This document shows, one piece after another, positions 34,716 to 56,198 of a stretch of DNA of 64,000 nt. A program made the translations under genes and the position numbers. The notes beneath the pieces are model-generated. The model was not told the origin of the DNA and searched no databases. It worked only from the letters and a program-made list of their open reading frames with translations. Source of the DNA: Candidatus Omnitrophota bacterium (lineage in GTDB: Bacteria; Omnitrophota; Gorgyraeia; Gygaellales; Profunditerraquicolaceae); assembly GCA_041651115.1 (NCBI GenBank), contig JBAZJY010000001.1, forward strand, positions 325,165-389,164, written 5' to 3'. Every line of letters begins with the position of its first letter. The first letter of the stretch is position 1.

Positions 34716-36194
34716 ATGAAAATCTTAATTTCGTATCCGCCGCTCAGCACTAAAAAAGGCTGTCCGACTTTGGGCCAAAACCGGCAGTTCCAGTATTTTA
34801 AGGAACCGACTTTTATTTATCCGGTTGTCCCGGCGCTTGCTGCGACACTGCTTAAAAAAGCCGGCCATGAAGCGGTCTGGAATGATTGTTTGGCCCAGGG
34901 GTGGGATTTTCCAACTTTTCTGAATTTTATCCGGAAGGAACAGCCGGGTGTAATTGTTTTTGAAACGAAGACCCCGGTTATAAAGCAGCATTGGAAAATG
35001 ATTGATGATATTAAGGGATTGTTTGCGCCGGAAACCGGGCCTAAATTTGTTTTAATGGGTGATCACGTTACCGCGTTGCCCGAAGAATCGTTTGAGAAAT
35101 CGCAGGTTGATTTTGTCCTTACCGGCGGAGATTATGATTTTCTTCTTTTGAACCTTTGTAACTATTTACGTTCGCCTGAGACCAATCTTGAGCCGGGTAT
35201 TTATTTTCGCGACGGAAAAACGGTCAAGAATACCGGTAAATTCAAATTGGACCATGACCTGGATGCACTGCCGTTCATTGACCGCGAATTGACAAAATGG
35301 CAACTCTATGCGTCTAAAAACGGCAATTATAAAAGGACGCCCGGTACATATATCATGTCCGGCCGCGATTGCTGGTGGGGCAAATGCAGTTTTTGCAGCT
35401 GGCCGGGGATGTATCCAACGTTCCGCAGCCGCTCAACGCAGAACGTACTGGAAGAGGTCGGATACTTGATCGATAAATATTCGGTCAAGGAAATAATGGA
35501 TGATACCGGCTGTTTCCCGGCAGGCGAGTGGTTGAGGGAGTTCTGCCGGGGCATGGATGAGCTTGGCTTTAGCCGGAAAGCCTATTTTGACTGCAATATG
35601 CGTTTCGGCAGCTTGAGCGTCGATGATTTTGCGCTGATGAAAAAAGCTAACTTCCGGTTGCTGCTTTTTGGCTTGGAATCCGCCAATCAGGCGACGCTGG
35701 ACAGGATTAACAAGAACTTGAAAGTCGAACGGATAATTGAAGATTGCAAGGCGGCGACGCAAGCCGGACTTTTCCCGCATATTACGATCATGTTCGGATA
35801 CCCCTGGGAGGATTACGCGCAGGCAAAGAAGACGCTGGAGTTAGGAAAGTATTTACTGCGCAAGGGATATGCTTATACGATGCAGGCAACCGTGGTCATC
35901 CCTTATCCGGGAACTCCATTGTTTGAAGAATGCAAACGCAGCCATTTGTTGAAAACTGTTGATTGGGATGATTACGATATGAAGTCGCCGGTGATGAAAA
36001 CTGCGGTCGCAGATGAAAGGATTATGGGATTGGTGCAGGGCATGTACGGGGCTTCTTTCCAGCCGGAGTTTATTTTCAGGAAAATAGCGGCCTTGAGAGA
36101 TACCGATGATCTCCGGTATTACCTGCGGGCCTTAAAAAAGGTTATCGGCCATATGTTTGATTTCAGGAGAAATCGGTTATGCTCTGGAAAATAG
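34716..36194 (+). CDS. B12-binding-domain radical SAM protein (class B)
   Basis: N-terminal cobalamin-binding-like domain. Cys cluster CWWGKCSFC. 492 aa. Confidence 0.75.
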   Translation: MKILISYPPLSTKKGCPTLGQNRQFQYFKEPTFIYPVVPALAATLLKKAGHEAVWNDCLAQGWDFPTFLNFIRKEQPGVIVFETKTPVIKQHWKMIDDIKGLFAPETGPKFVLMGDHVTALPEESFEKSQVDFVLTGGDYDFLLLNLCNYLRSPETNLEPGIYFRDGKTVKNTGKFKLDHDLDALPFIDRELTKWQLYASKNGNYKRTPGTYIMSGRDCWWGKCSFCSWPGMYPTFRSRSTQNVLEEVGYLIDKYSVKEIMDDTGCFPAGEWLREFCRGMDELGFSRKAYFDCNMRFGSLSVDDFALMKKANFRLLLFGLESANQATLDRINKNLKVERIIEDCKAATQAGLFPHITIMFGYPWEDYAQAKKTLELGKYLLRKGYAYTMQATVVIPYPGTPLFEECKRSHLLKTVDWDDYDMKSPVMKTAVADERIMGLVQGMYGASFQPEFIFRKIAALRDTDDLRYYLRALKKVIGHMFDFRRNRLCSGK

Positions 36195-36454
36195 TCGGCC
36201 TGACTGCCGCGTTGTTAACCACCTTTTCTTTTGTCCCGCAGATCATAAAAGTGAGGAGGTCGCGGTCAGTCAAAGATGTCAGCCTGATAACCCTGGTCCA
36301 GTTTTCTGCCGGCGTTTTCTTGTGGGCCCTGTACGGCATTTTTTTAAGGGACGTGATTATAATCAGCGCTAACTGCGTGACGCTGGTAACGCTGTGTATC
36401 CTGCTATCGCTTTATTTTAAATATTCTAAAATGGAGAAGCCCGATGAGGCTTAA
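36179..36454 (+). CDS. SemiSWEET / PQ-loop family small sugar transporter
   Basis: 91 aa with three TM helices and a PQ motif (FSFVPQIIKV). Confidence 0.6.
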   Translation: MLWKIVGLTAALLTTFSFVPQIIKVRRSRSVKDVSLITLVQFSAGVFLWALYGIFLRDVIIISANCVTLVTLCILLSLYFKYSKMEKPDEA

Positions 36455-37853
36455 AGACAAAGAAAGCTATTACGCGGTAATTTTAGCCGGCGGCCAGGGA
36501 AGCCGTTTCTGGCCGCAAAGCCGCACGCTTGAGCCGAAACAATTCCTCTCTTTCTACCGGGATAAAAGCCTTTTTGAGCAGACCCTGGAGCGGATTAAGC
36601 CGCTTATACCTGCCGAGAATACGATTATTGTTACTTCCGACCTATACCGCCATCAGATCCATGAGTTCATTAAACCGTTTAATATTCCCGACGATAACCT
36701 GATTTTTGAGCCGGAAGGAAAGAATACTGCTCCTTCGATTGCCGTAGCAGCGCAGATGATCTTTAGTCGTGATCCGGATTCCCGTGTTTGCGTCATGCCT
36801 TGCGACCACCTGATTAAGCATAGCCGGCAATTCATAAAGATCATTAGCCGCGCATTAGCTTTGTGTAAAGACCGCATGGTCATATTTGGAATACCGCCGC
36901 ACAGGCCAGCTACTGGATATGGTTATATCAAGGCAGGTAAAAAAACCGGGGCCTTCCTGAAGGTAGACAGGTTTTGCGAAAAGCCCGACATTGCCACTGC
37001 CCGGCGGTTTGTGAAAAGCGGAGCTTATTTTTGGAATAGCGGGATATTCGCCGCTTCCAGCCGGACTTTCCTTGAAGAATTTAAGACTTATCTTCCGGAT
37101 CTTTACCGTCAAACCCTGAAGATCAACAGCGCAAGCGATCTAAAGATCGTTTGGAAAAAAATAAAACCGGAATCCTTTGATTACGGGATTTTAGAGAAAT
37201 CCCGCAGGCTATTAATGATCCCCGCGGAAGGGTTGGGTTGGTCAGACCTTGGCAGTTGGCAGGCCTGGGATGAAGTGCTGGAAAAAGACAAAGATACGAA
37301 TATCCTTAATGCCGACGTGGTAAGCCTGCATAGCAAGAACATTACGGTTGTGGGTAATAACCGGCTCATTGCCACGATCGGGCTGGACGATTTGATCATT
37401 GTGGATACCGCAGACGCGCTTTTGGTCGCCCGTAAAAACAAGACCGAGCATGTTAAGAGCGTAGTGGATATCCTTAAACAAAAGGGCAGGCTGGAACATT
37501 ATGCGCATCGCACGGTAAAACGGCCATGGGGATCTTATACGGTTTTAGAATCCGGCAGCGGATATAAAGTCAAGCTGGTAGAGGTCAAGCCAAAGCATTC
37601 ACTTAGCCTGCAGTATCATAATAAGCGCAGCGAGCATTGGGTGGTTGTGGAAGGCCGGGCAAGGCTCGTTAAAGGTAAAAGGACCTGTGTTTTGGAAACA
37701 AACCAAAGCATTTATGTACCGGTAGGCTGCGTGCACCGGATCACTAATCCCGGGGACGGCATATTAAAGATCATTGAAGTACAGGCAGGCGCCTACCTGG
37801 GCGAGGATGATATTGTGCGGCTAAAGGATGACTTCGGCCGTTTGAGCAGATAA
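36444..37853 (+). CDS. manC: mannose-1-phosphate guanylyltransferase / mannose-6-phosphate isomerase (cupin C-terminus)
   Basis: YAVILAGGQGSRFWPQSRTLEPKQFL. C-terminal cupin HRITNPGDG. Confidence 0.85.
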   Translation: MRLKDKESYYAVILAGGQGSRFWPQSRTLEPKQFLSFYRDKSLFEQTLERIKPLIPAENTIIVTSDLYRHQIHEFIKPFNIPDDNLIFEPEGKNTAPSIAVAAQMIFSRDPDSRVCVMPCDHLIKHSRQFIKIISRALALCKDRMVIFGIPPHRPATGYGYIKAGKKTGAFLKVDRFCEKPDIATARRFVKSGAYFWNSGIFAASSRTFLEEFKTYLPDLYRQTLKINSASDLKIVWKKIKPESFDYGILEKSRRLLMIPAEGLGWSDLGSWQAWDEVLEKDKDTNILNADVVSLHSKNITVVGNNRLIATIGLDDLIIVDTADALLVARKNKTEHVKSVVDILKQKGRLEHYAHRTVKRPWGSYTVLESGSGYKVKLVEVKPKHSLSLQYHNKRSEHWVVVEGRARLVKGKRTCVLETNQSIYVPVGCVHRITNPGDGILKIIEVQAGAYLGEDDIVRLKDDFGRLSR

Positions 37854-37873
37854 TCAGCTAATAGGGGGATCAA

Positions 37874-38854
37874 ATGATAAAAAACAAACGGGTGATGGTC
37901 AGCGGCGCCGGCGGTTTTATCGGCAGCCATTTAGCAAGAGAACTAAGCGAACAGGGAAATTTTGTACGGGCGGTGGATATTAAATGGGATGATTATATTG
38001 CTGATCCGCGCTATTCGGAAAAACTTACACTTGATCTGCGCCAGCCGGAGAGCTGCTTTAAGGCAACGCAAGGCATGGACTATGTATTTAACCTCGCGGC
38101 AAATATGGGAGGTATCGGGTTTATTTCTTCTGTCGGCGCGGAAGTAATGTATGACAACGTACTGATCAATGCGCACATTGCCCGGTCTTGCGTGAAAAAT
38201 AAGGTAAAGCGGTTATTCTTTTCGTCATCCGCCTGCATCTATCCCACTTACCGCCAGGAAAGCCCGGAAGTAAAACCGCTGAAGGAAGCAGACGCTTATC
38301 CGGCTAACCCGGATAATTTCTACGGCTGGGAGAAATTATATGCGGAGATAATGTTGGAGGCTTTTAATAAGGACAACGGCCTGGATGTCCGGATTGCCCG
38401 TTTTCATAACGTCTACGGACCAGAAGGCACTTATACCGGAGGCAGAGAAAAATCTCCTGCGGCAATCTGCCGTAAAGTTGCGGAAGCCGCTAATCCGGGC
38501 GAGATTGAGATATGGGGCGATGGCCTGCAGACACGCTCTTACTGTTATATTGACGACTGTGTGCGCGGCATCATCATGCTTATGGGGTCTGATTATGGCA
38601 AACCGCTGAATATCGGATCTGACCGGCTGGTTACGATCAATCAGCTGGCGGATATTGCGATAAATGTTTCAGGCAAGAAGATCGCGAAAAAATATGCCCG
38701 CAGCGCCCCGCAGGGGGTAAGGGGCAGGAATGCCGATCTTACTTTGGTAAAAAAAGTTCTAGGCTGGCATCCGGAAATAAGCCTTGAGCAGGGAATAGAG
38801 AATACGTATTTATGGATCGAAAAAATGATCAGCGCCAAAGTAAAAATGGCATAA
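37874..38854 (+). CDS. NAD-dependent epimerase; GDP-mannose 3,5-epimerase-like
   Basis: VMVSGAGGFIGSHLARELSEQGNFVRAVDIKWDDY and ARFHNVYGPEGTYTGGREKSPAAICRK match GME-family signatures recalled from plant/bacterial GME. Confidence 0.65.
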   Translation: MIKNKRVMVSGAGGFIGSHLARELSEQGNFVRAVDIKWDDYIADPRYSEKLTLDLRQPESCFKATQGMDYVFNLAANMGGIGFISSVGAEVMYDNVLINAHIARSCVKNKVKRLFFSSSACIYPTYRQESPEVKPLKEADAYPANPDNFYGWEKLYAEIMLEAFNKDNGLDVRIARFHNVYGPEGTYTGGREKSPAAICRKVAEAANPGEIEIWGDGLQTRSYCYIDDCVRGIIMLMGSDYGKPLNIGSDRLVTINQLADIAINVSGKKIAKKYARSAPQGVRGRNADLTLVKKVLGWHPEISLEQGIENTYLWIEKMISAKVKMA

Positions 38855-39762
38855 TGGCTATTTCAAGGATTCTTCGAAGTTTTATCTGGAGAATCTGGAA
38901 GATAACTTTCCCCTTTTGGCAAAGGCTGGGTTTGCATGTAGTGCCGAACCACTATAATTATCCTTTGCCGGATATACGCGGCCTTCGCGATGATCTATGG
39001 TCGCGGCATTCGGAATTGCCGGGGATAAATATGAACGTAGAAAATCAGATCCGCCTGCTTTCCCGGTTTACATACATAAGGCCTGAATACGATGGGCTGC
39101 CGAAAGAAAAGACGGCAATTCCTCATCAATATTACATAAATAACGGTACGTTTGCTGCGGTTGACGGAGAAATTTCTTATTGCATGATCCGGTATTTCAA
39201 GCCGAAGATATTTTTCGAAATCGGCGCCGGTAATTCTACGTATTTAGCGGCACAAGCAATCGTGAAGAACCAAGAAGCTGAAGGGGTGGAATGTGAGTTG
39301 ATTGCCTGTGAGCCTTATCCCGATAATATCCTGAAACGTGGTTTTCCCGGCCTTTCCCGGTTAATACCGTCCAAGGTCCAGGATGTTCCTTTGGCGGAAT
39401 TTAACCGGTTGCAGGAAAATGATATTCTTTTTATTGATTCCAGCCATGCTTTATATACTGGCAGCGACGTCCAGTATGAATTTCTGGAATTATTGCCCCG
39501 GCTTAACAGGGGGGTGATCGTACATGTCCACGATATTTTCTTGCCCGCGGAATACCCGCGGGACTTAATTATGGACAAGTACTGTTTTTTTAATGAGCAA
39601 TATTTGCTACAGGCATTTTTAACTTTTAATGATACTTTTGAAATCCTTTGGGCAGGCCGGTTTATGCATCTACGCCACCCGGAAAAATTATCCGTTGCCT
39701 TTAGCTCTTATGAGCAGAATCCGGCATGGCCGGTAAGTCTTTGGATGAGAAAAATGAAATGA
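38854..39762 (+). CDS. putative class I SAM-dependent methyltransferase (Methyltransf_24/CmcI-like)
   Basis: FFEIGAGNSTYLA glycine-rich motif and IDSSH. Weak family assignment. Confidence 0.4.
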   Translation: MAISRILRSFIWRIWKITFPFWQRLGLHVVPNHYNYPLPDIRGLRDDLWSRHSELPGINMNVENQIRLLSRFTYIRPEYDGLPKEKTAIPHQYYINNGTFAAVDGEISYCMIRYFKPKIFFEIGAGNSTYLAAQAIVKNQEAEGVECELIACEPYPDNILKRGFPGLSRLIPSKVQDVPLAEFNRLQENDILFIDSSHALYTGSDVQYEFLELLPRLNRGVIVHVHDIFLPAEYPRDLIMDKYCFFNEQYLLQAFLTFNDTFEILWAGRFMHLRHPEKLSVAFSSYEQNPAWPVSLWMRKMK

Positions 39763-39784
39763 AGGATTTATTAAAGGAGCAGTT

Positions 39785-40654
39785 ATGAAAGGAATAATCC
39801 TTGCGGGAGGAAAGGCAACGCGGCTGCATCCGATTACCAAGGGCGTATGTAAGCAGATGCTGCCGGTTTACGACAAGCCGATGGTCTATTATCCATTATC
39901 GGTATTAATGCTTGCCGGCATAAGGGATGTCCTTATCATCTCTACACCGAGGGATATTCCCCGCTTTAAAGATATCTTTGGTGTGGGGAGTGATTTAGGT
40001 ATGCGTATTTCTTATGCGCCTCAAGCCGAGCCGGCTGGTATTGCCGAGGCGTTCATTATCGGCGAGAAATTCATCCATGATGATACCGTTTGTTTAATTT
40101 TAGGCGACAATATTTTTTTCGGCCACGGGCTGCGGGATATCCTGCAGGAGGCGTCTTGCCTTAGGGAGGGTGCGTTGATCTTCGGCTATTATGTGCGTGA
40201 TCCCGAGAGATACGGCGTTATAGAGTTCGATAAATACGGCAATGCCGTATCGATTGAAGAGAAACCTAAGCAACCGCGTTCGAATTACGCTGTCAGCGGT
40301 CTTTACTTTTATGACAATAACGTGGTCGAGATTGCTAAAAAAATAAAACCTTCCAAAAGAGGAGAGCTGGAGATCACCGGCGTGATCAACGAATATCTTA
40401 AACGGGGGAACCTTAAAATTAAAATGATGGGCCGCGGCTATGCGTGGCTTGATACCGGGACTTATGATTCCCTTATTGACGCATCCCTGTTTATTAAAAC
40501 GATTGAAGACAGGCAGGGCCTGAAGATCGGCTGCGTAGAAGAAGTTGCTTATCGCATGGGTTACATTGACCGCCGTAAACTGGCGGCGTTGGCAAAGCAG
40601 ATAAATACTGCTTACGGAGAATACCTGATGAGAATATTAAAGGAGGCGGATTAA
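39785..40654 (+). CDS. rfbA: glucose-1-phosphate thymidylyltransferase
   Basis: MKGIILAGGKATRLHPITKGVCKQMLPVYDKPMVYYPLSVLMLAGIRDVLIIST. Confidence 0.9.
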   Translation: MKGIILAGGKATRLHPITKGVCKQMLPVYDKPMVYYPLSVLMLAGIRDVLIISTPRDIPRFKDIFGVGSDLGMRISYAPQAEPAGIAEAFIIGEKFIHDDTVCLILGDNIFFGHGLRDILQEASCLREGALIFGYYVRDPERYGVIEFDKYGNAVSIEEKPKQPRSNYAVSGLYFYDNNVVEIAKKIKPSKRGELEITGVINEYLKRGNLKIKMMGRGYAWLDTGTYDSLIDASLFIKTIEDRQGLKIGCVEEVAYRMGYIDRRKLAALAKQINTAYGEYLMRILKEAD

Positions 40655-41218
40655 GTGGCATTTAATTTCAGAAAATTAGAGATTTCCGACGTCATCCTCA
40701 TTGAGCCGGCTGTGTTCAGTGATGACCGCGGATTTTTCATGGAGACTTATAAATATCCGGATTTTAGCCGGGCCGGGATATCCTGCAATTTTCTTCAGGA
40801 TAATCATTCCAAGTCCAGCCAAAAGGGCGTATTGCGAGGCCTGCATTACCAGGTCAAGCCAAAGACCCAGAGTAAGCTCGTCCGGGTGGCCCGCGGAAGC
40901 ATTTTTGATGTTGCCGTTGATTTGCGGGGAGATTCGCCGAATTTCGGTAAATGGATATCTGTAGTTTTAAGCGCCGCTAACAAGTTGATGCTCTATATTC
41001 CCGAAGGTTTTGCCCACGGATATTGCACGTTAGATCCGGAGACAGAGGTCATTTATAAGTGTTCGGATGTTTACGCGCCGGAATACGAGAGGGGCATTAT
41101 CTGGAACGATAAAGAGATTAATATTGCCTGGCCGATACAAAACCCGGTATTATCCGGCCGCGACATGAAATTTCCGGCTTTAAGCCAGGCAAGGGCCAAG
41201 GGGTTGATTGATGAGTAA
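40655..41218 (+). CDS. rfbC: dTDP-4-dehydrorhamnose 3,5-epimerase
   Basis: LIEPAVFSDDRGFFMETY...LRGLHYQ...KLVRVARGSIFDVAVDLR cupin motifs. Confidence 0.85.
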   Translation: MAFNFRKLEISDVILIEPAVFSDDRGFFMETYKYPDFSRAGISCNFLQDNHSKSSQKGVLRGLHYQVKPKTQSKLVRVARGSIFDVAVDLRGDSPNFGKWISVVLSAANKLMLYIPEGFAHGYCTLDPETEVIYKCSDVYAPEYERGIIWNDKEINIAWPIQNPVLSGRDMKFPALSQARAKGLIDE

Positions 41219-42182
41219 AAGCATTCTGGTTACCGGAGGCTGCGGTTTTATCGGGTCACATTTTATCCGGCATATGCTTGAGCATGATAAAACATGCCGG
41301 GTCTCTAACCTGGATAACTTAAGCTATGCCGGAGACTTGAAGCGACTGCGGGATGTTAACAAAGATAAAAGATACGAATTTATCAGGGGGGACATACGAA
41401 AATCCGGCGATATCGCCAGAGCGTTTTTCCGTAAGATAGATGCCGTTGTGCATTTTGCCGCCGAAAGCCATGTTGATAATTCCATCCGCGACCCGTTAAT
41501 TTTTGAAGAAGTAAACGTGCGCGGCACGCTTAACCTTTTGGCTGCGGCGCGGCAAAAAGGGATAAAAAAGTTCATCCACATTTCTACCGACGAAGTTTAT
41601 GGAGAGATCCACGGAGGAAAATTCAGGGAAGATTCGCCGCTGGCGCCGAATTCCCCGTATTCAGCCAGTAAAGCAGCGGCTGATTCTTTTGTCCGCGCTT
41701 TTATGCGCACATATAAATTTCCGGCATTAATTGTCCGGCCGTGCAATAACTATGGGCCGTGGCAGTATCCGGAAAAGTTCATCCCGGTTGCGATTTGCAG
41801 CTTAATGAAGAACAGGCCGATCCCGGTTTACGGCCGCGGATTAAACTGCCGGGAATGGCTCTATGTTACCGATACGGCAGCGGCGATCGCCATGCTTTTA
41901 ACCAAAGGTAAGGCCGGTGAAGTTTATAATGTCGGCTCAGGAGTGGAGACCCGCAATCTGGACTTGGCGCGTAAGATACTTAAAATTTCCGCTAATCCGG
42001 GAAAACTGATCGAATTTGTTGCGGATCGGCCCGGCCATGACTTCCGTTATGCCCTTGATTCGGCAAAGATCCGCAATCTCGGCTGGAACCCGGAAATAAC
42101 ATTCCCGGAGGGGCTAAAAGCCACTATTAGCTGGTATTTAAGGCAAAAAGACTGGCTGTTCAAAAGGCATAAAACGCCTTGA
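41208..42182 (+). CDS. rfbB: dTDP-glucose 4,6-dehydratase
   Basis: ILVTGGCGFIGSHFIRHML...ISTDEVYG...YSASKAAAD...NNYGPWQYPEKFIP. Confidence 0.9.
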   Translation: MMSKSILVTGGCGFIGSHFIRHMLEHDKTCRVSNLDNLSYAGDLKRLRDVNKDKRYEFIRGDIRKSGDIARAFFRKIDAVVHFAAESHVDNSIRDPLIFEEVNVRGTLNLLAAARQKGIKKFIHISTDEVYGEIHGGKFREDSPLAPNSPYSASKAAADSFVRAFMRTYKFPALIVRPCNNYGPWQYPEKFIPVAICSLMKNRPIPVYGRGLNCREWLYVTDTAAAIAMLLTKGKAGEVYNVGSGVETRNLDLARKILKISANPGKLIEFVADRPGHDFRYALDSAKIRNLGWNPEITFPEGLKATISWYLRQKDWLFKRHKTP

Positions 42183-42206
42183 CTTTTTTGACCTGTTTGT
42201 TAAAAT
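42179..42206 (+). promoter_or_regulatory. putative promoter producing a leaderless transcript for the MarR-type gene
   Basis: TTGACT, 16-nt spacer, TAAAAT ending 7 nt before the ATG at 42214. Confidence 0.35.
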
Positions 42207-42213
42207 ATGTTCA

Positions 42214-43501
<1,288 letters not shown>

Positions 43502-43508
43502 CGGTAAG

Positions 43509-44489: not shown

Positions 44490-45244
44490 AAACAGAAAAA
44501 CATGATGCGATTACTTTATCCAGCGTTGAAGAAAAAGAGGCGATAAGGCGGTTTGTGGGGCATTTCAAAGAATCCCCGCTTCCCGATGATGAGATCCTGC
44601 CTAATATCGGGCTCTTTTTGACTTCTAAGAACCTTTCGCGAATATTATTTTTTTATGAGATATATAAGAAGATCATCAACCATCACGGCGTGATCATGGA
44701 ATTCGGCGTGCGCTGGGGCCAGCTTGCCTCCGTATTAGTGGCGCTGAGGAGTATTTTTGAGCCTTTTAACCGGCACAGAAAATATATCGGTTTTGATACA
44801 TTCGAAGGATTCAGGGGAATGTGCAAGAAGGACGGCCAGGCCTGTGAAAGCAAAGATGGTTCTTTTTCTGTCCCCCCGGGATATGAAGAATATCTGGGCA
44901 AGATCATACGCATGCAGGAACAATTGAATCCAATGTCGCATTTAAGCCGTTATGAGCTGATCAAGGGCGATGCGGTAGAAACGGTGCGCGCATACCTAAG
45001 CAAGCATCCGGAAACAGTCATTTCTCTGGCGATATTTGATTTTGATATTTATACTCCGACCAAGGCAGCGCTTGAAGCAATTAAGCCGCATTTGACTAAA
45101 GGCAGTATTTTAGTGTTTGATGAACTTTGCGATGATATCCATCCCGGCGAGACAATTGCCGTACAAGAGGTCTTAGGGTTAAATAACCTAAAGATCCAGA
45201 GGATGCCGATGACGGCAAGAGTGTCTTATGTGGAGATAGGATGA
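44474..45244 (+). CDS. TylF/MycF-family (macrocin-type) O-methyltransferase
   Basis: IMEFGVRWGQLASVL...YIGFDTFEGF matches the TylF pattern ECGV.RGGS...FDSFEG. Confidence 0.6.
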   Translation: MVEKMKTEKHDAITLSSVEEKEAIRRFVGHFKESPLPDDEILPNIGLFLTSKNLSRILFFYEIYKKIINHHGVIMEFGVRWGQLASVLVALRSIFEPFNRHRKYIGFDTFEGFRGMCKKDGQACESKDGSFSVPPGYEEYLGKIIRMQEQLNPMSHLSRYELIKGDAVETVRAYLSKHPETVISLAIFDFDIYTPTKAALEAIKPHLTKGSILVFDELCDDIHPGETIAVQEVLGLNNLKIQRMPMTARVSYVEIG

Positions 45245-46023
45245 CCCCGGTTTGCGCCGAAATCAGAAAAAGAATGATCGATATTTCCATGGTCAGCGGG
45301 CATGGCCACCTGCCGTCCTGCTTTTCCGTGATTGAGATCTTATATGCGGTATATAGCGTAATAAAGCATGACCCCAAGAACCCGCTCTGGGAAGAACGTG
45401 ACATATTTATTTTGAGCAAAGGCCACGCCGCGCTTGCTCAATATTGCGTCTTGGCGGAATTCGGTTACTTTAACAAGAAAGATCTGGCAGCTTACGGCGC
45501 GTTTATGTCTAATTTTGGCTGTCATGCCGACAGGTCAAAGATCCCGGGCGTAGAGGCTTCCACAGGTTCATTAGGACATGGGATAGGGATTGCCGTCGGC
45601 ATGGCGCTGGCGAATAAGATCAAGAAACATAAGCGGCGTATCCTGACGCTGATTGGCGACGGGGAAGCAAATGAAGGTACGGTATGGGAAGCAATGATGG
45701 TGGCAGAAAATTTAAAACTTAGCAACTTAACCGTTATCTATGACAACAACCTTTCCCATGCCCGGGGGCTGCAAATACGCAATCCCGCTGAACGTTTCCG
45801 GGCATTCGGGTGCCAGGTTTCGGAAGTAAGCGGCCATGATATCGCTGAGCTGAAAAAGAAAATTACAGAATCGGCGGATACGGTTAAAGTCATCGTGGCA
45901 AATACGCAAAAAGGATACGGATGCAAAACGCTGGTCGATAACCAGTATGAATGGCATAGAAAATCACCGAACGCAGAACAGAAGAATAAATTAATCGAGG
46001 AGATCTGTGCGGAAACAATTTAA
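45241..46023 (+). CDS. transketolase, N-terminal (ThDP-binding) subunit of a split transketolase
   Basis: GHGHLPSCFSVIEILYAVY...GSLGHGIGIAVGMALANK...GDGEANEG. Confidence 0.8.
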   Translation: MTPVCAEIRKRMIDISMVSGHGHLPSCFSVIEILYAVYSVIKHDPKNPLWEERDIFILSKGHAALAQYCVLAEFGYFNKKDLAAYGAFMSNFGCHADRSKIPGVEASTGSLGHGIGIAVGMALANKIKKHKRRILTLIGDGEANEGTVWEAMMVAENLKLSNLTVIYDNNLSHARGLQIRNPAERFRAFGCQVSEVSGHDIAELKKKITESADTVKVIVANTQKGYGCKTLVDNQYEWHRKSPNAEQKNKLIEEICAETI

Positions 46024-46891
46024 AGAGACCGTTATGGACCTGGCCCGGCACGACGATAAGATCGTCCTGGTTTTTGGCGATATCAGCGTTTATCTCTTTC
46101 AGGATTTTAGCGCGCAGTATCCCGGCCGTTTCTACAATATGGGGATTTGCGAGAATACGTTAGTGAGCGTCGGGGCGGGATTAAGCTCGCAAGGCCTTTT
46201 TCCGTTCGTGCATACGATCACTCCTTTTGTGACGGAAAGGAGTTACGAGCAGATCAAGCTGGATATGTGCTATAACCGTTTCGGCGGCAATATAATTTCC
46301 TGCGGCGCGTCCTTTGATTATGCCTGGGATGGCGCTACCCACCATGCCTATACGGATTTATCTTTATTACGCCTGCTTCCCGGGGCAGAAGTGATTCAGC
46401 CGGGGTCAAGGAAGGAACTGGATGCTTTGCTGCGCAGCCAATACAATAACGGGAAGATGACCTATTTCCGCCTTTCCGACTATCCCCATACAATTGATAC
46501 GCCGGTTGAATTCGGTAAAGGCGTTATCCTGAAAAATAATAACGCATCGGTAACAGTCATGACTGCCGGACCGTTATTGGGCAATGTCCTGGAGGCATGC
46601 AAAGGCCTTAATGTTAACCTTGTATATTTCCATACGATAAAACCCATAGATAAAGAAATGATCCGTAAGTTTCGTAATACCGACATTCTCGTTATCCACG
46701 ATGCCTTTGGGTTGTATGAAGCAATATGCGAAGTCCCCAATATTTCAGTTTCGTATTACGGCCTGCCGGATGAATTTATCAGCTGTTATGGAAAGCTTGA
46801 CCAGATAAGAAAGCACATCGGCCTTGATGTAGACGGGATCAGGGGGAAGGTCAAAGGTCAGATCAGCGCTTCTGCGAAGAATAAAAGGTAA
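46007..46891 (+). CDS. transketolase, C-terminal (pyrimidine-binding) subunit
   Basis: FGDISVYLFQDFSAQYPGRFYNMGICENTLVSVGAGLS. Overlaps the N-terminal subunit gene. Confidence 0.8.
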   Translation: MRKQFKETVMDLARHDDKIVLVFGDISVYLFQDFSAQYPGRFYNMGICENTLVSVGAGLSSQGLFPFVHTITPFVTERSYEQIKLDMCYNRFGGNIISCGASFDYAWDGATHHAYTDLSLLRLLPGAEVIQPGSRKELDALLRSQYNNGKMTYFRLSDYPHTIDTPVEFGKGVILKNNNASVTVMTAGPLLGNVLEACKGLNVNLVYFHTIKPIDKEMIRKFRNTDILVIHDAFGLYEAICEVPNISVSYYGLPDEFISCYGKLDQIRKHIGLDVDGIRGKVKGQISASAKNKR

Positions 46892-46913
46892 CGGTGCTTA
46901 AATAGGAGTAAAT

Positions 46914-47948
46914 ATGGAAGATATTAAAAGGTCTCTTGAGCGGGCAATAGTTGAACAGGGGTGGTGCTTTGGCGATAAGGCAACACGCATAGGGTTGCCG
47001 TTTGAGTGGACGGAAAATGAACGTAAGCCTTTGATCCTGAGCTTGAAGGACCTGCTGGCAGTAGGGTTTTATTTTTCCATGTATTATGTGCAAAAGAAAA
47101 CTCCCGATACGATCATTACGAAGGATCATGATAAGGTGCAAAAGTATTGCCGGGAGCAATTATACGGCGTCTTTAAACATTTTTTTCCTTTTTTAGAACT
47201 GAATGGGACATGGAAAAACCATATTGAAAGTCAGGCATTGGCGCGGGCACAGGACTATTGTTTTATCAAGCGGTATTGCGATAAGTTGCCGAAGCGGTTA
47301 TCGCACGGCGATATCGGGGCAGGGCTGGGAACGACGACTTTATACAGCCTGAAATTCCTTAATTCAACTTTTTATGCACTTGAGGCCAGCCCGATGAGCT
47401 ACTCGGTGCAGCGGAACTATTTTCGTTTCGTTTCTCCATATCCGGGCGCCTATCTTGATGTTGTTGAGTGCGAGAATTTCCAATTGACGCAAGATGCTAT
47501 CCGGAAAGAACTGGGCAAAGATTCTTACCGTCTAAAACATGTTCCGACGTGGAGGTTCGGCCTGGTCCCCGCGCGTTCGCTAGACCTGCTCACGGCGACT
47601 TTTGTCCTGAATGAACTTAATTATGCGGGAATACTTTGGCTCCTTGCTCAGGCATCAAGGACATTGAGAAAGAATGGCTATTTTTATATCCGGGATAGTT
47701 TTATCCTTAAGGCGGGCACCCACTCCATAGATTACGACAAGGTACTGCTGAAGATCGGTTTTCAGCGCAAGGCGCAGTTTGAGATCGCTAATCGCCATGA
47801 TTTTTTCGGCATCCCTCGGCTTTATCGGAAAATCAGCGATAAAGCGTATTCGTTTGATGAAATGGTTGAGATGTGTTTAGGCAAATTTGCCTCTGTGGCA
47901 TCGGGTTCAAGCTATGCCTACAATATGGAATCAACCCCAAAGTTGTAA
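46914..47948 (+). CDS. hypothetical protein, possible class I methyltransferase fold
   Basis: The GDIGAGLGTTT glycine-rich loop is the only recognisable element. Confidence 0.35.
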   Translation: MEDIKRSLERAIVEQGWCFGDKATRIGLPFEWTENERKPLILSLKDLLAVGFYFSMYYVQKKTPDTIITKDHDKVQKYCREQLYGVFKHFFPFLELNGTWKNHIESQALARAQDYCFIKRYCDKLPKRLSHGDIGAGLGTTTLYSLKFLNSTFYALEASPMSYSVQRNYFRFVSPYPGAYLDVVECENFQLTQDAIRKELGKDSYRLKHVPTWRFGLVPARSLDLLTATFVLNELNYAGILWLLAQASRTLRKNGYFYIRDSFILKAGTHSIDYDKVLLKIGFQRKAQFEIANRHDFFGIPRLYRKISDKAYSFDEMVEMCLGKFASVASGSSYAYNMESTPKL

Positions 47949-47965
47949 AAGAATATTTAGCTAAG

Positions 47966-49507
47966 ATGAAAGAAATAATATTATTTTTCCCGCGCCCGTG
48001 GCCGGGAAAAGCCATGAGTGGCCGCATTCCTTATTCGCTGCTGTTTTTATACAACTACCTGCGCGATACGGATTTTAAGGTGCGGATCATCGATGAGAGG
48101 ATTGATAATATTCCGTCGGCGATACGGGCATTGGGAAAAGATATATTGTGTTTCGGCATCAGTTCGTTCACGGGTATCCAGATTAAAAACGGCCTTAATA
48201 TTGCCCGGCAGCTAAAAGCGCATAGCCCCGATGTGCCGATAGTCTGGGGAGGATGGCATCCTTCAAGTTTACCGGAACAAACGTTGCAGCATCCGCTTGT
48301 TGATATTGTCGTGCGGGGCCAGGGCGAGGTCACCTTTAAAGAATTGGTCTTTGCCTTAGATAAAGGCAATGACCTCTCAGGGATCGAAGGCGTATCGTAC
48401 AAAAAAAATGGCATCATCGTTCATAATCCGGACCGGCAGCTTTCGGGTGTGATTGAAAATATCCGTATTCCCTTTGAAGCTGTCCCGGTGGATAAATATA
48501 TTTACAAAAAACCTTTTGCTGAACAGTCCGACCGGACAATCGGCATTATTACCAGCTTAGGATGCCCGTATCACTGCGGGTTTTGCGCGGTTACGGGAGT
48601 TTATAAACGGAAAGTTTTCTTTCGGAATATGGATCATGTCCTGGAGGAGATCGATTATTTGGCCAATCAGCATAAAATTAGCAGCATTACGATCGATGAC
48701 GATAATTTTTTCGTTTCTCCGGAAAGAGTAATGAAATTTTCTCAGGCATTGCTTGGCCGGCCATATAAGATATCATGGGATGCCGGGGTGAGCGCGGATC
48801 TTTTATTAAGCAAATATGACGATGCTGCCCTGGATGTAATCAAAAGGTCGGGGTGCACTCAACTTTATATCGGCGCGGAATCAGGCTCGGATGAAGCCCT
48901 GCGCATGATCGGCAAGCAGGCAACCGTTGCCCATACCTATGAATTCGTAAAGAAAATGAAAGATGTCGGCATCCGGGCGTCTTTTTCTTCAATGGTCGGA
49001 TTGCCGGTTACTTCGCCCGATGAGGTACACCAAACAATAGATATGATCTTAAAATGCCGGGAAATCAACCCGGATTTTGATTACCGGCTGTTTTATTATA
49101 CCCCTTATCCGGCAACGCCTTTATATGAGCGCGCGCAGAATATGCACATGAAGGCGCCGGCTTCGCTTGAGGAATGGGCAAGCTATACGCCAAGAAGATT
49201 TAAGGCCCCATGGTTGGATAGTTCATATCGGCGGATGGTAAAATATTTCTGTTACTATTACTACCCGTATTCCGGAGAGATGAAGCATGTGCGGCACCAG
49301 CAGATAATAAAGCGGGCTGCCGAATTTATTTACCGTATGATTTTTGAAAATGCGATCTTAAAAAAGATCGCCTGCGTGCGTGTCAAACACCGTTATTTTA
49401 AATTCCCGGTTGATGCGGCGTTCGCCATACAGGGGGCGAGGTTCAAGAGTTGGTACGACCGTTTAGCGCATCAGAATGTGGATAAATTCGCTGAGCTTGA
49501 CAGTTAA
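47966..49507 (+). CDS. B12-binding-domain radical SAM protein (class B), second copy
   Basis: N-terminal B12-binding-like domain. CPYHCGFC cluster. Confidence 0.8.
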   Translation: MKEIILFFPRPWPGKAMSGRIPYSLLFLYNYLRDTDFKVRIIDERIDNIPSAIRALGKDILCFGISSFTGIQIKNGLNIARQLKAHSPDVPIVWGGWHPSSLPEQTLQHPLVDIVVRGQGEVTFKELVFALDKGNDLSGIEGVSYKKNGIIVHNPDRQLSGVIENIRIPFEAVPVDKYIYKKPFAEQSDRTIGIITSLGCPYHCGFCAVTGVYKRKVFFRNMDHVLEEIDYLANQHKISSITIDDDNFFVSPERVMKFSQALLGRPYKISWDAGVSADLLLSKYDDAALDVIKRSGCTQLYIGAESGSDEALRMIGKQATVAHTYEFVKKMKDVGIRASFSSMVGLPVTSPDEVHQTIDMILKCREINPDFDYRLFYYTPYPATPLYERAQNMHMKAPASLEEWASYTPRRFKAPWLDSSYRRMVKYFCYYYYPYSGEMKHVRHQQIIKRAAEFIYRMIFENAILKKIACVRVKHRYFKFPVDAAFAIQGARFKSWYDRLAHQNVDKFAELDS

Positions 49508-49535
49508 ACAAATAAGCAAAATAAAGAAAGGAAGG

Positions 49536-50525
49536 ATGACCATGTTTAAGGGGCGCAATGTCCTTGTTGCCGGCGGAGCCGGATTTACCGGCGCAAATTT
49601 AGTGCAGCGATTGGTATCGCTGGGGGCAAATGTCCGGGCGACGTTATATAAGAAAAACGCGATAATCCAGGACAAGCGGATCGAATATATCCGCTGCGAT
49701 TTAAGGCAAATGGAAGACTGTACAAAAGTCGTTAAGGATATGGAATACGTCTTTATGTGCGCAGCGAATACTTCAGGCGCCGCGGTAATCAAGGCTAATC
49801 CGCTTGCCCATGTGACCCCGAACCTGGTGATGAATGCGCAGATGCTGGAAGCTGCGTATTTTGCCAAGGTGAAGAAATTTTCCTTTATGAGCAGCAGCGT
49901 TGTTTACCCTCCTTCCGGCAGCCATCCGTGCAAGGAAGATGAAATGATGAATGGTGACCCGGCAGATATATATTTTCTCGCTGCCTGGATGAAACGGTAT
50001 ACGGAGATCTCCTGCCGTTATTTTTCACAGAAGATAAATAATCCCATCGGCACAGCGGTGATCCGGCCGGCAAATATTTACGGGCCGCATGATAATTACG
50101 ACCTCGCTACCTCGCATGTCATGTCGGCAATGATCCGTAAGGTCGTTGAACGGCAGAATCCTATCCAAGTCTGGGGGACCGGCGAAGATGTGCGCGACTG
50201 GATTTATGTTGAGGACCTGATAGACGGATTTTTGTTGGCAACCGAAAAATTGAATACTTACGATCCGGTAAATATTGCCCTTGGCAAAGGTTATACGATC
50301 ATGCAAATGCTGCAGATATTGCTGGAACTCGAAGACTACCGCGATGCTAAGATCATTTGCGATCCTTCCAAGCCGTCAATGATCCCGATACGGCTTTTTG
50401 ATACGACAAAAGCAGAAAAACTATTAGGCTTTAAGGCAAAGCATGACTTGAGGGAAGGGCTAAAGAAAACAATTGCCTGGTATAAGGCTACGCATAGCGT
50501 TCCGGCAAAATCTGCTGCGGCATAG
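49536..50525 (+). CDS. SDR-family NAD-dependent sugar epimerase/reductase (paralog 2)
   Basis: VLVAGGAGFTGANLVQRL...RIEYIRCDLRQMEDC. Confidence 0.7.
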   Translation: MTMFKGRNVLVAGGAGFTGANLVQRLVSLGANVRATLYKKNAIIQDKRIEYIRCDLRQMEDCTKVVKDMEYVFMCAANTSGAAVIKANPLAHVTPNLVMNAQMLEAAYFAKVKKFSFMSSSVVYPPSGSHPCKEDEMMNGDPADIYFLAAWMKRYTEISCRYFSQKINNPIGTAVIRPANIYGPHDNYDLATSHVMSAMIRKVVERQNPIQVWGTGEDVRDWIYVEDLIDGFLLATEKLNTYDPVNIALGKGYTIMQMLQILLELEDYRDAKIICDPSKPSMIPIRLFDTTKAEKLLGFKAKHDLREGLKKTIAWYKATHSVPAKSAAA

Positions 50526-50537
50526 CAAGAGAAAAGG

Positions 50538-51716
50538 ATGAAAGTATATATTAAGGGCCTGAATAGCTGCCTTACGCGCAAGCAAAAATTGCAGCAATAC
50601 AGGGATTTTCTGGTTGCCAACGGCCATGAGATAACGCATGACCATAAGAAGTGCGATAAGATCCTTCTGTGGACTTGTGCATACAGGGCAGATGTGCGCG
50701 ATAATTCAATCGCCCAATTGGATTATTACCGGCGCAATAGCAAGGCAGAGGTTATTGCCGCAGGCTGTCTTCCTGATATTGCCCCGGGGTTATTGGAAAA
50801 AAGTTTTCCCGGTCGTGTAATAAGCTGGCGGAAGGACAAAGATAAATTTGTACAAGTCTTCGGGCATCCAAAAATCAGATTTGCGGAAAATTGCCGCGTC
50901 TTCGTCGAACCGCCGCTTTGCGAAGATGCAGCAGTATTCCGCAAAAAACATCCGGGTAAGGACGTCACCTTCCTTGACCAGTTCGTTAAATTAGTTGTTT
51001 CCGAAGGATGCGGATTTAAGTGCTCTTACTGCTCTGAGCGCTTGGCATTTCCTGCTTATCGGAGTTTTCCCGAGGCAGCGCTGGTTCGCATGTGCCGCGC
51101 AATGATAAAAGAAAGCGGTAAGCAGGAGGTGGCCCTTATTGCCGACAGCCTAGGCGAGTATGGCCAGGATATCGGGGTTTCGCTTCCTTCTCTGGTTCGT
51201 AAATTAGCGGCAGTCAGTCCCGGCCTAAGGATCGCGTTAAATAATTTGAACCCAGGCAGTTTTCTGCGCTATAAGAAGGAGCTGTCCGGATTCATCGCAA
51301 AGGGGATTATCCGGCATATAAACTTGCCCATACAATCCGCATCCGGGCGCATGCTTGATCTGATGCAGCGGCCATACACGCGTAAGGATATTGATGAAAT
51401 ATTTACCTTATTCAATAAGCTTAAATTTACCGATTTTGATACGCATATTATTGTCGGCTTTCCGGGAGAAACCGAAGACGATCTTGCGGAAACCGTTAAA
51501 TTCGTTTTACGTTACCGGCCGAAATACGTATTAATAAATAAGTATATGGAGGCCCCGGAAATGCCTTCCGCAGGATTGCCGGGAAAGGTTCCGGCAAGGG
51601 TTATCGCTGCCAGGGCTAAGAAAGCAGCGCGGCAGATAAAGGCGGCAGGGATAATTTCTAATAACGACGGAAGTAAACGGGCCAAAGACCGCCTGGAAAG
51701 ATTGAATCATGGTTAA
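50538..51716 (+). CDS. radical SAM protein with methylthiotransferase-like (UPF0004) N-terminal domain, no TRAM domain
   Basis: KVYIKGLNSCLTRKQ...CDKILLWTCAYRA (MTTase N-domain-like) then CGFKCSYC. Confidence 0.65.
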   Translation: MKVYIKGLNSCLTRKQKLQQYRDFLVANGHEITHDHKKCDKILLWTCAYRADVRDNSIAQLDYYRRNSKAEVIAAGCLPDIAPGLLEKSFPGRVISWRKDKDKFVQVFGHPKIRFAENCRVFVEPPLCEDAAVFRKKHPGKDVTFLDQFVKLVVSEGCGFKCSYCSERLAFPAYRSFPEAALVRMCRAMIKESGKQEVALIADSLGEYGQDIGVSLPSLVRKLAAVSPGLRIALNNLNPGSFLRYKKELSGFIAKGIIRHINLPIQSASGRMLDLMQRPYTRKDIDEIFTLFNKLKFTDFDTHIIVGFPGETEDDLAETVKFVLRYRPKYVLINKYMEAPEMPSAGLPGKVPARVIAARAKKAARQIKAAGIISNNDGSKRAKDRLERLNHG

Positions 51717-53737: not shown

Positions 53738-54234
53738 TGAGAGTAGAAAAGACAAACCTCGATGGCGTATTACTGGTTACTTTAGATGTATTTAAAGACC
53801 ACCGGGGGGAATACGTTGAGACGTATAATAAAAAATTATATGCGGATAACGGGATCGATGTGGAATTCGTTCAGGACGACATATCGGTATCTTCAAAAAA
53901 CGTATTAAGAGGGATCCATGGCGATGGGCGTACCTGGAAGCTGATCTCCTGCCCTTATGGGAAAATATACTTTGTGGTGGTTGTTTGCAATCCGGCATCC
54001 CGGCAGTTCGGCCAATGGCAATCGTTTATTTTATCCGAAGAAAATCGTCAACAGGTATTGGTTCCGCCAAAATTCGGTAATGCGCACCTGGTTTTAAGCG
54101 ATAAGGCGATCTTCCAATATAAGCAGACAAGCTATTACGATCCGGGATCGCAGTTTTCCTGCAAATGGAATGACCCGCGTTTTAAGATCACCTGGCCGGT
54201 TAGCGAACCGATATTATCTAAACGCGATGGATAA
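53734..54234 (+). CDS. dTDP-4-dehydrorhamnose 3,5-epimerase-family cupin (short, RmlC-like)
   Basis: VLLVTLDVFKDHRGEYVETY...LRGIHGD. 166 aa. Confidence 0.7.
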   Translation: MMRVEKTNLDGVLLVTLDVFKDHRGEYVETYNKKLYADNGIDVEFVQDDISVSSKNVLRGIHGDGRTWKLISCPYGKIYFVVVVCNPASRQFGQWQSFILSEENRQQVLVPPKFGNAHLVLSDKAIFQYKQTSYYDPGSQFSCKWNDPRFKITWPVSEPILSKRDG

Positions 54235-56194: not shown

Positions 56195-56198
56195 CCAA

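Follow-up and report, generated by a model that had tools for sequence, protein, structure and literature searches.

A TRAM-less methylthiotransferase-like radical SAM family in a conserved, putative GDP-heptose cassette of an Omnitrophota surface glycan locus

Introduction

The methylthiotransferases MiaB, MtaB, e-MtaB and RimO belong to the radical S-adenosylmethionine (SAM) enzymes, and as of 2023 all known members carry a TRAM domain and act only on A37 of tRNA or on Asp88 of ribosomal protein S12 (PMC10702137). The methylthiotransferase subgroup of SFLD is defined by a three-domain architecture. In this study we analysed a stretch of 64,000 nucleotides (nt), hereafter the window, of a Candidatus Omnitrophota bacterium (assembly GCA_041651115.1, contig JBAZJY010000001.1, positions 325,165 to 389,164), in which a first-pass annotation made from the DNA letters and their open reading frames (ORFs) had noted three radical SAM genes within a polysaccharide locus. 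We verified all three ORFs, and their coordinates and sugar-gene neighbours agreed with that description, as did the Pfam matches apart from the B12-binding domain, which Pfam gave for one of the two predicted class B enzymes. One of them, rSAM3, is on sequence grounds a member of a discrete family of about 390 amino acids (aa), which lacks the TRAM domain and whose sugar-gene neighbours are maintained over at least 10 phyla and two domains of life. We regard the region as a cell-surface glycan locus made of two units, a module around rSAM1 and a heptose cassette holding rSAM2 and rSAM3, and we give this explanation, taken as a package together with the pathway proposed below, a probability of about 0.5. 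The three genes are:

34716..36194, + strand: rSAM1, 492 aa, predicted class-B architecture, HpnJ-like, CX4CX2C motif (C219/C224/C227)
47966..49507, + strand: rSAM2, 513 aa, B12-binding plus radical SAM domains (class B, from Pfam), CX3CX2C motif
50538..51716, + strand: rSAM3, 392 aa, TRAM-less methylthiotransferase-like radical SAM enzyme, UPF0004 plus radical SAM core, two predicted [4Fe-4S] sites

Each of the three proteins is 100% identical to a protein in a public metagenome-assembled genome (MAG) of Candidatus Omnitrophota, all three on a contig of 647 kb, and the window DNA also occurs in a Logan assembly. The longest ORF of rSAM2 begins at a GTG at 47873, as compared with the start at 47966 used here.

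Class B radical SAM enzymes combine a Rossmann B12-type N-terminal domain with the radical SAM core and include GenK, Fom3, TokK, QCMT and TsrM as well as the non-methylating HpnJ, BchE and OxsB, of which HpnJ works with the glycosyltransferase HpnI. CalS11 is the TDP-rhamnose 3'-O-methyltransferase of calicheamicin formation. A precedent for radical SAM sulfur insertion in a sugar is AbmM, a twitch-type enzyme unrelated to the methylthiotransferases, which replaces a nucleoside ring oxygen with sulfur in an antibiotic pathway. During albomycin thioheptose/thiofuranose formation AbmM moves the sulfur of its own Fe-S cluster into the sugar (PMC12691670). The enzymology of GDP-heptoses has been described in Campylobacter jejuni (PMC10680097), and for the split-gene transketolases of miharamycin and amipurimycin formation a hydroxyacetyl branching of a keto sugar has been proposed, which was never shown in vitro and whose examples are all from Streptomyces (PMC12247030).

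A discrete family of TRAM-less methylthiotransferase-like proteins

The rSAM3 protein matched the Pfam families UPF0004 (PF00919, 32.5 bits, cut-off 27) and Radical_SAM (PF04055, 60.4 bits), and no Pfam match to TRAM was found, the protein stopping about 60 residues past the radical SAM core; its description in the first-pass annotation as MiaB-like without TRAM thus holds. The radical SAM motif CGFKCSYC (CX3CX2C) stands at residue 158 and provides C158, C162 and C165, and the UPF0004 domain contributes C11, C47 and C77, the positions which in MiaB and RimO serve as ligands of the auxiliary cluster. All six cysteines were kept in 38-39 of 39 representatives of the family. The AlphaFold2 model (predicted local distance difference test score, pLDDT, 89.8) had its best matches in MtaB, MiaB and RimO with a template modelling (TM) score of about 0.7, and its C-terminus forms a short helix-strand-helix where these three enzymes carry the TRAM barrel. 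The likeness to MiaB, MtaB, e-MtaB and RimO therefore extends to the UPF0004 domain with its three cysteines, the CX3CX2C core and the overall fold, whereas the missing TRAM domain, the family score, the separate sequence cluster and the nucleotide-sugar context set rSAM3 apart from them.

rSAM3 stayed under every methylthiotransferase cut-off, with 164 bits against 251 for TIGR00089, 152 against 315 for e-MtaB, 131 against 357 for MtaB, 118 against 357 for RimO and 87 against 355 for MiaB, so that two features which define the methylthiotransferases, the TRAM domain and the family score, are both wanting. When 1.84 billion representatives were searched exhaustively with phmmer, there emerged a family of about 45-50 clusters with lengths of 360-407 aa and scores from 460 down to about 220 bits, the next proteins scoring at most 175 bits. 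In distance clustering the family parted from 83 other methylthiotransferase-like representatives at the first split, and it is present in many bacterial phyla and in archaea. Judged by these sequence comparisons, rSAM3 ought not to be classed with MiaB, MtaB or RimO, and the labels 'MiaB', 'MtaB' and 'CDKAL1' which some databases attach to its homologues are probably wrong.

TRAM-less proteins of this general kind, as predicted from profile matches, are a wider set than the rSAM3 family, for TRAM is also missing from some of the proteins which score next after it. In six methylthiotransferase-like proteins of 380-440 aa (P0415, P0416, P0421, P0423, P0430 and P0470) the match to the methylthiotransferase model ends at about position 355 of 429, which leaves them without TRAM, and some of these other proteins carry an insertion between the UPF0004 and radical SAM domains.

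The family resides in a conserved sugar cassette

Scanning GTDB with one genome per species gave 37 rSAM3 loci, and the 21 of them with about 10 kb on both sides were used for neighbour counts by best-assignment tblastn. The loci belong to Geobacteraceae, Magnetococcales, Rhodospirillales/Magnetospira, Desulfo-lineages, Planctomycetota, Anaerolineaceae, Fibrobacterota, Victivallaceae, Methylomirabilia, Omnitrophota, Methanoperedens and Woesearchaeota. Copies from cultures or plasmids were also sought; the plasmid collection held no rSAM3 match, and all 37 GTDB loci were from MAGs. Both transketolase halves were found near rSAM3 in 18 of the 21 flanked loci, a nucleotidyltransferase in 18, a B12-binding radical SAM gene (B12-rSAM) in 17 and always within 5 kb, an HddA-like GHMP kinase in 16, and a DegT-type pyridoxal phosphate enzyme in 13. 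Furthermore, in 21 of all 37 loci a TylF/CalS11-like methyltransferase has its start no more than 400 nt downstream of rSAM3. An earlier count of 22/23 for the CalS11-like methyltransferase was probably inflated by cross-hits of TylF-like paralogues and is replaced by the best-assignment counts.

The usual order is CalS11-like methyltransferase, N-terminal transketolase half, C-terminal transketolase half, short-chain dehydrogenase/reductase (SDR), rSAM3, TylF-like methyltransferase and B12-rSAM. Across the loci the cassette, outside which the family is hardly ever met, comprises a Cj1427-like GDP-heptose C4-dehydrogenase, a heptose 3,5-epimerase, HddA/HddC-like proteins, CalS11-like methyltransferases, the split transketolase and the B12-rSAM, and genes of the SIS (GmhA-like), HAD (GmhB-like) and NUDIX families are added in some of them. 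The same neighbours surround the rSAM3 homologues of a Methanoperedens archaeon, a Desulfovibrio and a Sedimentisphaerales MAG. Because identities of 45-60% are maintained across phyla and domains, the comparisons point to a horizontal spread of the cassette as one unit.

In a Desulfovibrio MAG (L004, 10001-14850) we noticed two rSAM3-type paralogues, 45% identical to one another and each followed by its own TylF/CalS11-like methyltransferase, and in L036 two adjacent rSAM3-type copies are followed by one such methyltransferase. This suggests that the radical SAM gene and the methyltransferase gene form a functional unit which is able to duplicate. Lineages named for magnetotaxis stand out among the rSAM3 loci (Magnetococcales with three loci, Magnetospira with two, an Alphaproteobacteria MAG and Ca. 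Magnetomoraceae; L010, L019, L022, L030, L037, L039 and protein P0065), a share which may only mirror the MAG studies that were deposited.

Putative heptose and tailoring genes of the window

In the window the cassette genes around rSAM2 and rSAM3 are as follows.

42551..43501, + strand: Cj1427-like GDP-heptose C4-dehydrogenase (SDR), from a PDB 6VO6 match
43509..44489, + strand: SDR, Fcl-like reductase/epimerase
44474..45244, + strand: CalS11-like O-methyltransferase of nucleoside diphosphate (NDP) sugars, TylF clan, core member of the cassette (PDB 4gf5, CalS11, 196 bits)
45241..46891, + strand: split transketolase, N-terminal half 45241-46023 and C-terminal half 46007-46891 (Pfam, NCBIfam)
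46914..47948, + strand: 344-aa protein with SAM-motif-I-like HGDIGAGLG, presumed partner of rSAM2, weak matches only
49476..50525, + strand: SDR, Fcl-like; in related loci usually the gene immediately upstream of rSAM3
51709..52731, + strand: FkbM-family methyltransferase, 8-nt overlap with the rSAM3 stop
52748..53737, + strand: SDR, GDP-fucose-synthase-like, candidate C4-reductase
53734..54234, + strand: RmlC-fold (cupin) epimerase (PDB 8db5, 8dco and 7m14, about 129 bits)
54170..55177, + strand: ORF of 335 aa, flanked by the heptose epimerase and GHMP kinase genes
55190..56194, + strand: GHMP kinase, HddA-like (best NCBIfam match, below cut-off)
56127..56900, + strand: sugar-1-phosphate guanylyltransferase, ManB/HddC-like (best NCBIfam match, below cut-off)

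The SDR at 42551-43501 matched PDB 6VO6, which we take to be Cj1427, with 414 bits and 60.5% identity, gapless over 309 aa; the search output names this entry a putative sugar-nucleotide epimerase/dehydratase. For the epimerase at 53734-54234 the C. jejuni GDP-D-glycero-4-keto-D-lyxo-heptose 3- and 3,5-epimerases were the top matches, and the other SDRs of the cassette are GDP-fucose-synthase-like, as are the C4-reductases of C. jejuni. The locus thus resembles the C. jejuni pathway (Cj1427/Cj1430/Cj1428, HddA/HddC) in its C4-dehydrogenase, heptose-type epimerase, Fcl-like reductases and HddA/HddC-like genes. On the other hand, the account of that pathway names no transketolase or radical enzyme (PMC10680097), whereas both form the conserved core of the cassette here. 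Because of the matches to the C4-dehydrogenase, the epimerase, HddA/HddC and CalS11, taken together with the C. jejuni pathway, a GDP-4-keto-heptose is the likely hub intermediate of the cassette, and its substrate would be a GDP-heptose derivative, as these neighbours suggest.

The methyltransferase at 44474-45244 belongs to a type which in most related loci lies next to the transketolase or to rSAM3, and its match to CalS11 implies methylation at the level of the NDP-sugar. It differs from CalS11 in that the presumed substrate here is a GDP-heptose derivative, and the acceptor atom could be oxygen, or sulfur in case a thiol is left by rSAM3. In other loci the methyltransferase which follows rSAM3 downstream scored 113 bits against CalS11, and in the window this slot, held in most related loci by the CalS11/TylF-like enzyme, is filled by the FkbM gene. 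Both transketolase halves scored as ordinary transketolase with NCBIfam. The arrangement recalls miharamycin and amipurimycin formation in that a two-gene transketolase lies beside an oxidoreductase which would make a keto sugar, but those genes belong to antibiotic clusters of Streptomyces (PMC12247030) and the present ones to a glycan locus of anaerobes and archaea. The first-pass annotation had remarked on a chemistry that is normally associated with antibiotic pathways, and the nearest characterised relatives of the CalS11-like methyltransferase and the split transketolase are indeed found there.

The ORF at 54170-55177 gave no Pfam or NCBIfam match even at relaxed thresholds and had no homologue in 38 related loci.

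rSAM2, a predicted cobalamin-type partner from an interchangeable set

rSAM2 lies within the heptose cassette and matched the Pfam families B12-binding (PF02310, 56.7 bits, cut-off 32.1) and Radical_SAM (75.1 bits), with the canonical motif CPYHCGFC (CX3CX2C). Cobalamin binding by rSAM2 is predicted from this domain match, and of the two cobalamin-binding class B enzymes claimed by the first-pass annotation it is the one that stands on a direct match, the B12 domain of rSAM1 being suggested by orthologues and model only. rSAM2 scored about equally, at 119-132 bits, on the models of ApyD, BchE (TIGR02026, 132 bits against 481), HpnJ and PhpK (TIGR04479, 119 bits against 600), all far under the cut-offs. 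Its best solved relatives were TokK, AprD4, TsrM, QCMT, CysS and OxsB. The proposal of GenK- or Fom3-type methylation could not be carried over to an assignment, and no GenK-specific model was among the matches returned.

About 30 orthologues share at least 50% identity with rSAM2. One of them, in L047, stands in the same arrangement, with a gene of 347 aa without Pfam match in the slot of 46914-47948, and a homologue of the 46914-47948 protein with 63% identity occurs in one GTDB locus. An Endomicrobiales orthologue of 50% identity lies in an unrelated methyltransferase-rich glycan locus without rSAM3 or transketolase. Across the rSAM3 loci the B12-rSAM slot is filled by three subfamilies with mutual identities of only 20-25%; the idea of one conserved B12-rSAM partner for rSAM3 was rejected on this account, and by these comparisons a B12-rSAM is a constant yet interchangeable ingredient of the cassette.

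rSAM1 belongs to a separate Omnitrophota module

rSAM1 is preceded by three genes.

31788..33032, + strand: Wzx-like flippase (Polysacc_synt, Pfam PF01943), first gene of the module
33029..33823, + strand: glycosyltransferase family 2 (GT2) protein, polyprenyl-phosphate sugar synthase-like (PpgS/AglJ/ArnC-like; Pfam PF00535; NCBIfam PpgS and AglJ below cut-off)
33759..34712, + strand: GT2, MftF/AglG-like (Pfam PF00535 and PF13632; NCBIfam MftF 122 bits, below cut-off)

With Pfam rSAM1 matched Radical_SAM alone (43.9 bits); no B12-binding match was obtained for it from Pfam, whereas many orthologues of about 70% identity do match that family. Its motif is CWWGKCSFC (CX4CX2C), and C219, C224, C227 and three further cysteines are invariant. 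The model (pLDDT 72) shows an N-domain of Rossmann type with five strands and five helices, and its best structural matches were QCMT, AprD4, OxsB, TsrM, CysS and TokK, of which AprD4 is set apart as unrelated to B12-dependent enzymes in a review of the B12-rSAMs (PMC12931638). The B12-type domain of rSAM1 is thus a prediction from orthologues and model rather than a direct domain match. Against HpnJ (TIGR03471) rSAM1 scored 138.6 bits over nearly the full length, with a cut-off of 577.6, followed by BchE (76 bits, cut-off 481) and the methylase models (at most 63 bits; PhpK 54 bits, cut-off 600). An assignment to non-methylating families such as BchE was what the first-pass annotation had named as contrary to its reading, and rSAM1 does lean that way, to HpnJ and then to BchE, with scores that are all far below the cut-offs. 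rSAM2 has the two-domain plan of the class B enzymes, and rSAM1 is predicted to have it, but the two differ from the described ones in that neither reaches a subfamily cut-off, and rSAM1, nearest to HpnJ, carries the CX4CX2C motif.

Relatives of rSAM1 number in the thousands; the top 120 are 65-85% identical, and the named ones are mostly from Omnitrophota, across which the orthologues are about 70% identical. The order Wzx-GT2-GT2-rSAM1 is repeated in three other Omnitrophota contigs (L044, L045 and L046) with differing downstream genes, and one of these contigs also keeps the upstream PGM / S1 / TyrRS synteny. From its gene content the module seems to assemble a short glycan on a lipid and to flip it, and its conservation of about 70% over the phylum has the look of a core function of the envelope. 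A common pathway of rSAM1 with rSAM2 and rSAM3 was considered and rejected, since rSAM1 has its own conserved module with variable genes downstream. The earlier placing of the radical SAM enzymes in sugar tailoring is thus borne out for rSAM2 and rSAM3, which lie inside a nucleotide-sugar pathway, but the three enzymes do not form one system. Their sharing of a sugar locus is, on the comparative evidence, not a matter of chance, because rSAM3 homologues retain their neighbours in 37 loci and rSAM1 retains its Wzx-GT2-GT2 neighbours in other Omnitrophota.

A second B12-binding radical SAM gene of about 470 aa was noticed downstream of the rSAM1 orthologue in two of these contigs, two genes on in L045 (9185-10597) and four genes on in L044 (10861-12270), and B12-type radical SAM genes seem to occur regularly in the glycan loci of Omnitrophota.

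Proposed pathway and alternative explanations

We propose that a heptose would be activated by the HddA/HddC-like enzymes and converted into a GDP-4-keto-heptose by the Cj1427-like dehydrogenase (42551-43501), after which the RmlC-fold epimerase and the Fcl-like SDRs would set the stereochemistry, the CalS11-like and other methyltransferases would methylate the sugar, and the split transketolase would add a two-carbon branch onto the keto sugar. Unactivated C-H bonds of the nucleotide sugar would then be functionalised by rSAM2, most simply by C-methylation, and by rSAM3, which would install sulfur, in the simplest case as -SCH3 which, after the pattern of MiaB and RimO, derives from the auxiliary cluster. 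rSAM1 may carry out a separate radical chemistry on a lipid-linked sugar, either an HpnJ-like rearrangement or a methylation. It is very probable that rSAM3 works in a sugar pathway and not on tRNA or protein; that it inserts sulfur, by analogy with its relatives, we put at a little under an even chance. A sulfur or methylthio substituent on the sugar is a reasonable prediction because rSAM3 keeps both methylthiotransferase clusters, and to this extent the thiomethylated sugars foreseen by the first-pass annotation find support. The fuller proposition, that the rSAM3 family is the first small-molecule methylthiotransferase clade and attaches methylthio or thiol to a GDP-heptose that the transketolase has branched, is tentative and more likely to fail than to hold.

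If rSAM3 were an ordinary tRNA or ribosomal-protein methylthiotransferase which came to lie in a sugar locus by accident, its best structural and sequence matches to MtaB, MiaB and RimO would be explained, as would the MiaB or MtaB labels of some homologues in databases; the missing TRAM domain, which binds RNA, the scores below every methylthiotransferase cut-off and the constant sugar-gene neighbours of a discrete family make this highly improbable. A more serious competitor is that rSAM3 acts on a nucleotide sugar without sulfur insertion, by rearrangement, C-C bond formation, dehydration or epimerisation, with the auxiliary cluster binding the substrate or relaying electrons. The same missing TRAM domain and cut-offs, TIGR00089 included, would agree with it, and the separate methyltransferase which nearly always follows the gene would be needless if rSAM3 supplied a complete -SCH3 group, although these neighbouring CalS11-like O-methyltransferases may merely methylate hydroxyls. 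Radical SAM enzymes of similar fold such as AprD4 also do sulfur-free chemistry on sugars. Against this stand the invariance of the three UPF0004 cysteines, the ligands of the sulfur-donating cluster in MiaB and RimO, and the fact that all characterised UPF0004 radical SAM enzymes are methylthiotransferases (PMC10702137), and we consider sulfur-free chemistry unlikely, though far from negligible.

The B12-type enzymes, for their part, may not be methylases at all: rSAM1 could, in the manner of HpnJ, contract the ring of a lipid-linked sugar or rearrange the sugar, and rSAM2 an oxidation, contraction or deoxygenation like those of BchE, OxsB and AprD4. The HpnJ score of rSAM1 is about twice that of any methylase model, the gene adjoins GT2 glycosyltransferases much as HpnJ pairs with HpnI, its CX4CX2C motif is unusual and AprD4 and OxsB are among its best structural matches, and rSAM2 for its part matches the AprD4 family and PDB 6fd2. 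Every score, however, is far under the family cut-off (138.6 against 577.6 for HpnJ), the window holds no hpn or squalene-hopene cyclase genes and thus no hopanoid genes, and rSAM2 has a solid B12-binding domain and a methyltransferase-like partner protein. According to a 2026 review, non-methylating members are indistinguishable from methylases by sequence or structure, but most characterised class-B enzymes are methylases (PMC12931638). A non-methylating function is in our judgement doubtful.

The transketolase, too, has an alternative role, in which it would make a ketose-phosphate precursor (sedoheptulose-7-phosphate or a C8/C9 ketose) that, on the model of the lincosamide octose route, is later isomerised, phosphorylated and GDP-activated. 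Octose activation by LmbR/N/P/K/O uses enzyme families that also serve heptose activation, the Methanoperedens locus additionally holds a transaldolase, an SIS isomerase, an HAD phosphatase, a GHMP kinase and a nucleotidyltransferase, and NCBIfam, as said, rates both halves as ordinary transketolase. The genes are, however, wedged between the CalS11-like methyltransferase and the SDR and radical SAM genes, away from the kinase and nucleotidyltransferase, and they co-occur with the Cj1427-like enzyme, which yields the type of keto-sugar acceptor proposed in miharamycin and amipurimycin formation; a precursor role is therefore one we would not expect, on perhaps the weaker side of the balance.

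Several points weigh against the pathway as we propose it. The functions of the radical SAM families are predicted from sequence, models and synteny, and the confidence of the rSAM1 model is only moderate at pLDDT 72. The kinase had HddA as its best model at 146 bits against an equivalog cut-off of 600, and the nucleotidyltransferase scored 130 bits on HddC against a cut-off of 300 and higher on the mannose-1-phosphate guanylyltransferase model; homologues of GmhA and GmhB are absent from the window. Instead of branching a keto sugar, the transketolase could serve to provide the sugar-phosphate backbone or to lengthen it, and the three B12-rSAM subfamilies imply that the reaction may differ between loci. 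The known methylthiotransferases, as said above, all have TRAM and only macromolecular substrates, and no methylthio-bearing heptose in any glycan was found in the open-access literature. That literature gave no account of this cassette, of TRAM-less methylthiotransferases in glycan loci or of methylthio sugars made by radical SAM enzymes, and nothing relevant on B12-rSAMs in capsule or O-antigen loci or on radical SAM enzymes in Omnitrophota glycosylation; the radical SAM genes mentioned in a paper on C. jejuni HS:19 are unrelated.

If the proposal is true, the radical sulfur insertion of the methylthiotransferases would be extended to carbohydrates, with a nucleotide sugar as a new class of substrate, and many uncultured anaerobic bacteria and some archaea would bear a sulfur-bearing, C-branched higher surface sugar which has never been seen chemically. 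The cassette also offers a setting outside Streptomyces for the unproven keto-sugar branching by split transketolases (PMC12247030).

Other genes of the window

All genes of the window lie on the plus strand and its GC content is even (0.43-0.50). Upstream housekeeping genes comprise obg, proB/proA, a nadD-like gene, rpe, phosphomannomutase, S1 and TyrRS, and from 31788 to the end of the window there runs an unbroken series of sugar genes, a glycan locus of about 30 kb on one strand whose content (Wzx, GT2s, ManC, RmlABC, SDRs and NeuB homologues) is that of a sugar locus. A promoter and terminator scan of 30400-50000 gave counts equal to the shuffled expectation and hence no operon boundaries, and an Rfam scan of the whole window returned one tRNA only, with no cobalamin or other riboswitch. 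The sugar genes between rSAM1 and the cassette, and those following it, are:

36444..37853, + strand: ManC, mannose-1-phosphate guanylyltransferase / mannose-6-phosphate isomerase (NCBIfam TIGR01479, 500 bits, above cut-off)
37874..38854, + strand: SDR sugar epimerase/reductase, Fcl-like
38812..39762, + strand: Methyltransf_24 methyltransferase
39785..42182, + strand: RmlA, RmlC and RmlB homologues (dTDP-6-deoxyhexose genes; Pfam)
42214..42564, + strand: small winged-helix regulator (Pfam HTH_24)
56913..62135, + strand: nonulosonic-acid-type genes, namely a GLF/amine-oxidase-NeuB fusion, a dehydrogenase and a NeuB-cytidylyltransferase fusion, outside the conserved cassette

The first of the two NeuB fusions (56913-59306, 797 aa) joins a UDP-galactopyranose-mutase/amine-oxidase-like flavoprotein to a NeuB-type synthase, and the second (60384-62135, 583 aa) joins another NeuB homologue to a CMP-sugar cytidylyltransferase domain; the rSAM3 loci contained homologues of neither. 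Over 62190-64000 a frame of more than 600 codons, asparagine-synthase-like (amidotransferase), stays open and runs past the end of the window, so that the glycan locus extends beyond the window. Small winged-helix genes of the HTH_24 type are recurrent in Omnitrophota glycan loci (42214-42564 in the window, 1574-1906 in L044, 8614-8766 and 10094-10420 in L046), and these embedded genes may be local regulators.

Far upstream of the glycan locus, the region 12056-15557 contains a TonB-dependent receptor gene (12056-13960), which has no riboswitch, and a gene for a family-5 solute-binding protein. It is followed by a fourth radical SAM gene (15754-17127), which encodes a geopeptide-type radical SAM/SPASM peptide maturase (318 bits on TIGR04280, whose cut-off of 400 is not reached), and directly after it by an ATP-binding cassette exporter (17078-18838); next come genes for a Cache histidine kinase and for an AraC-type response regulator. 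The stretch 15754-18838 is probably a small locus for a ribosomally synthesised and post-translationally modified peptide, separate from the sugar genes.

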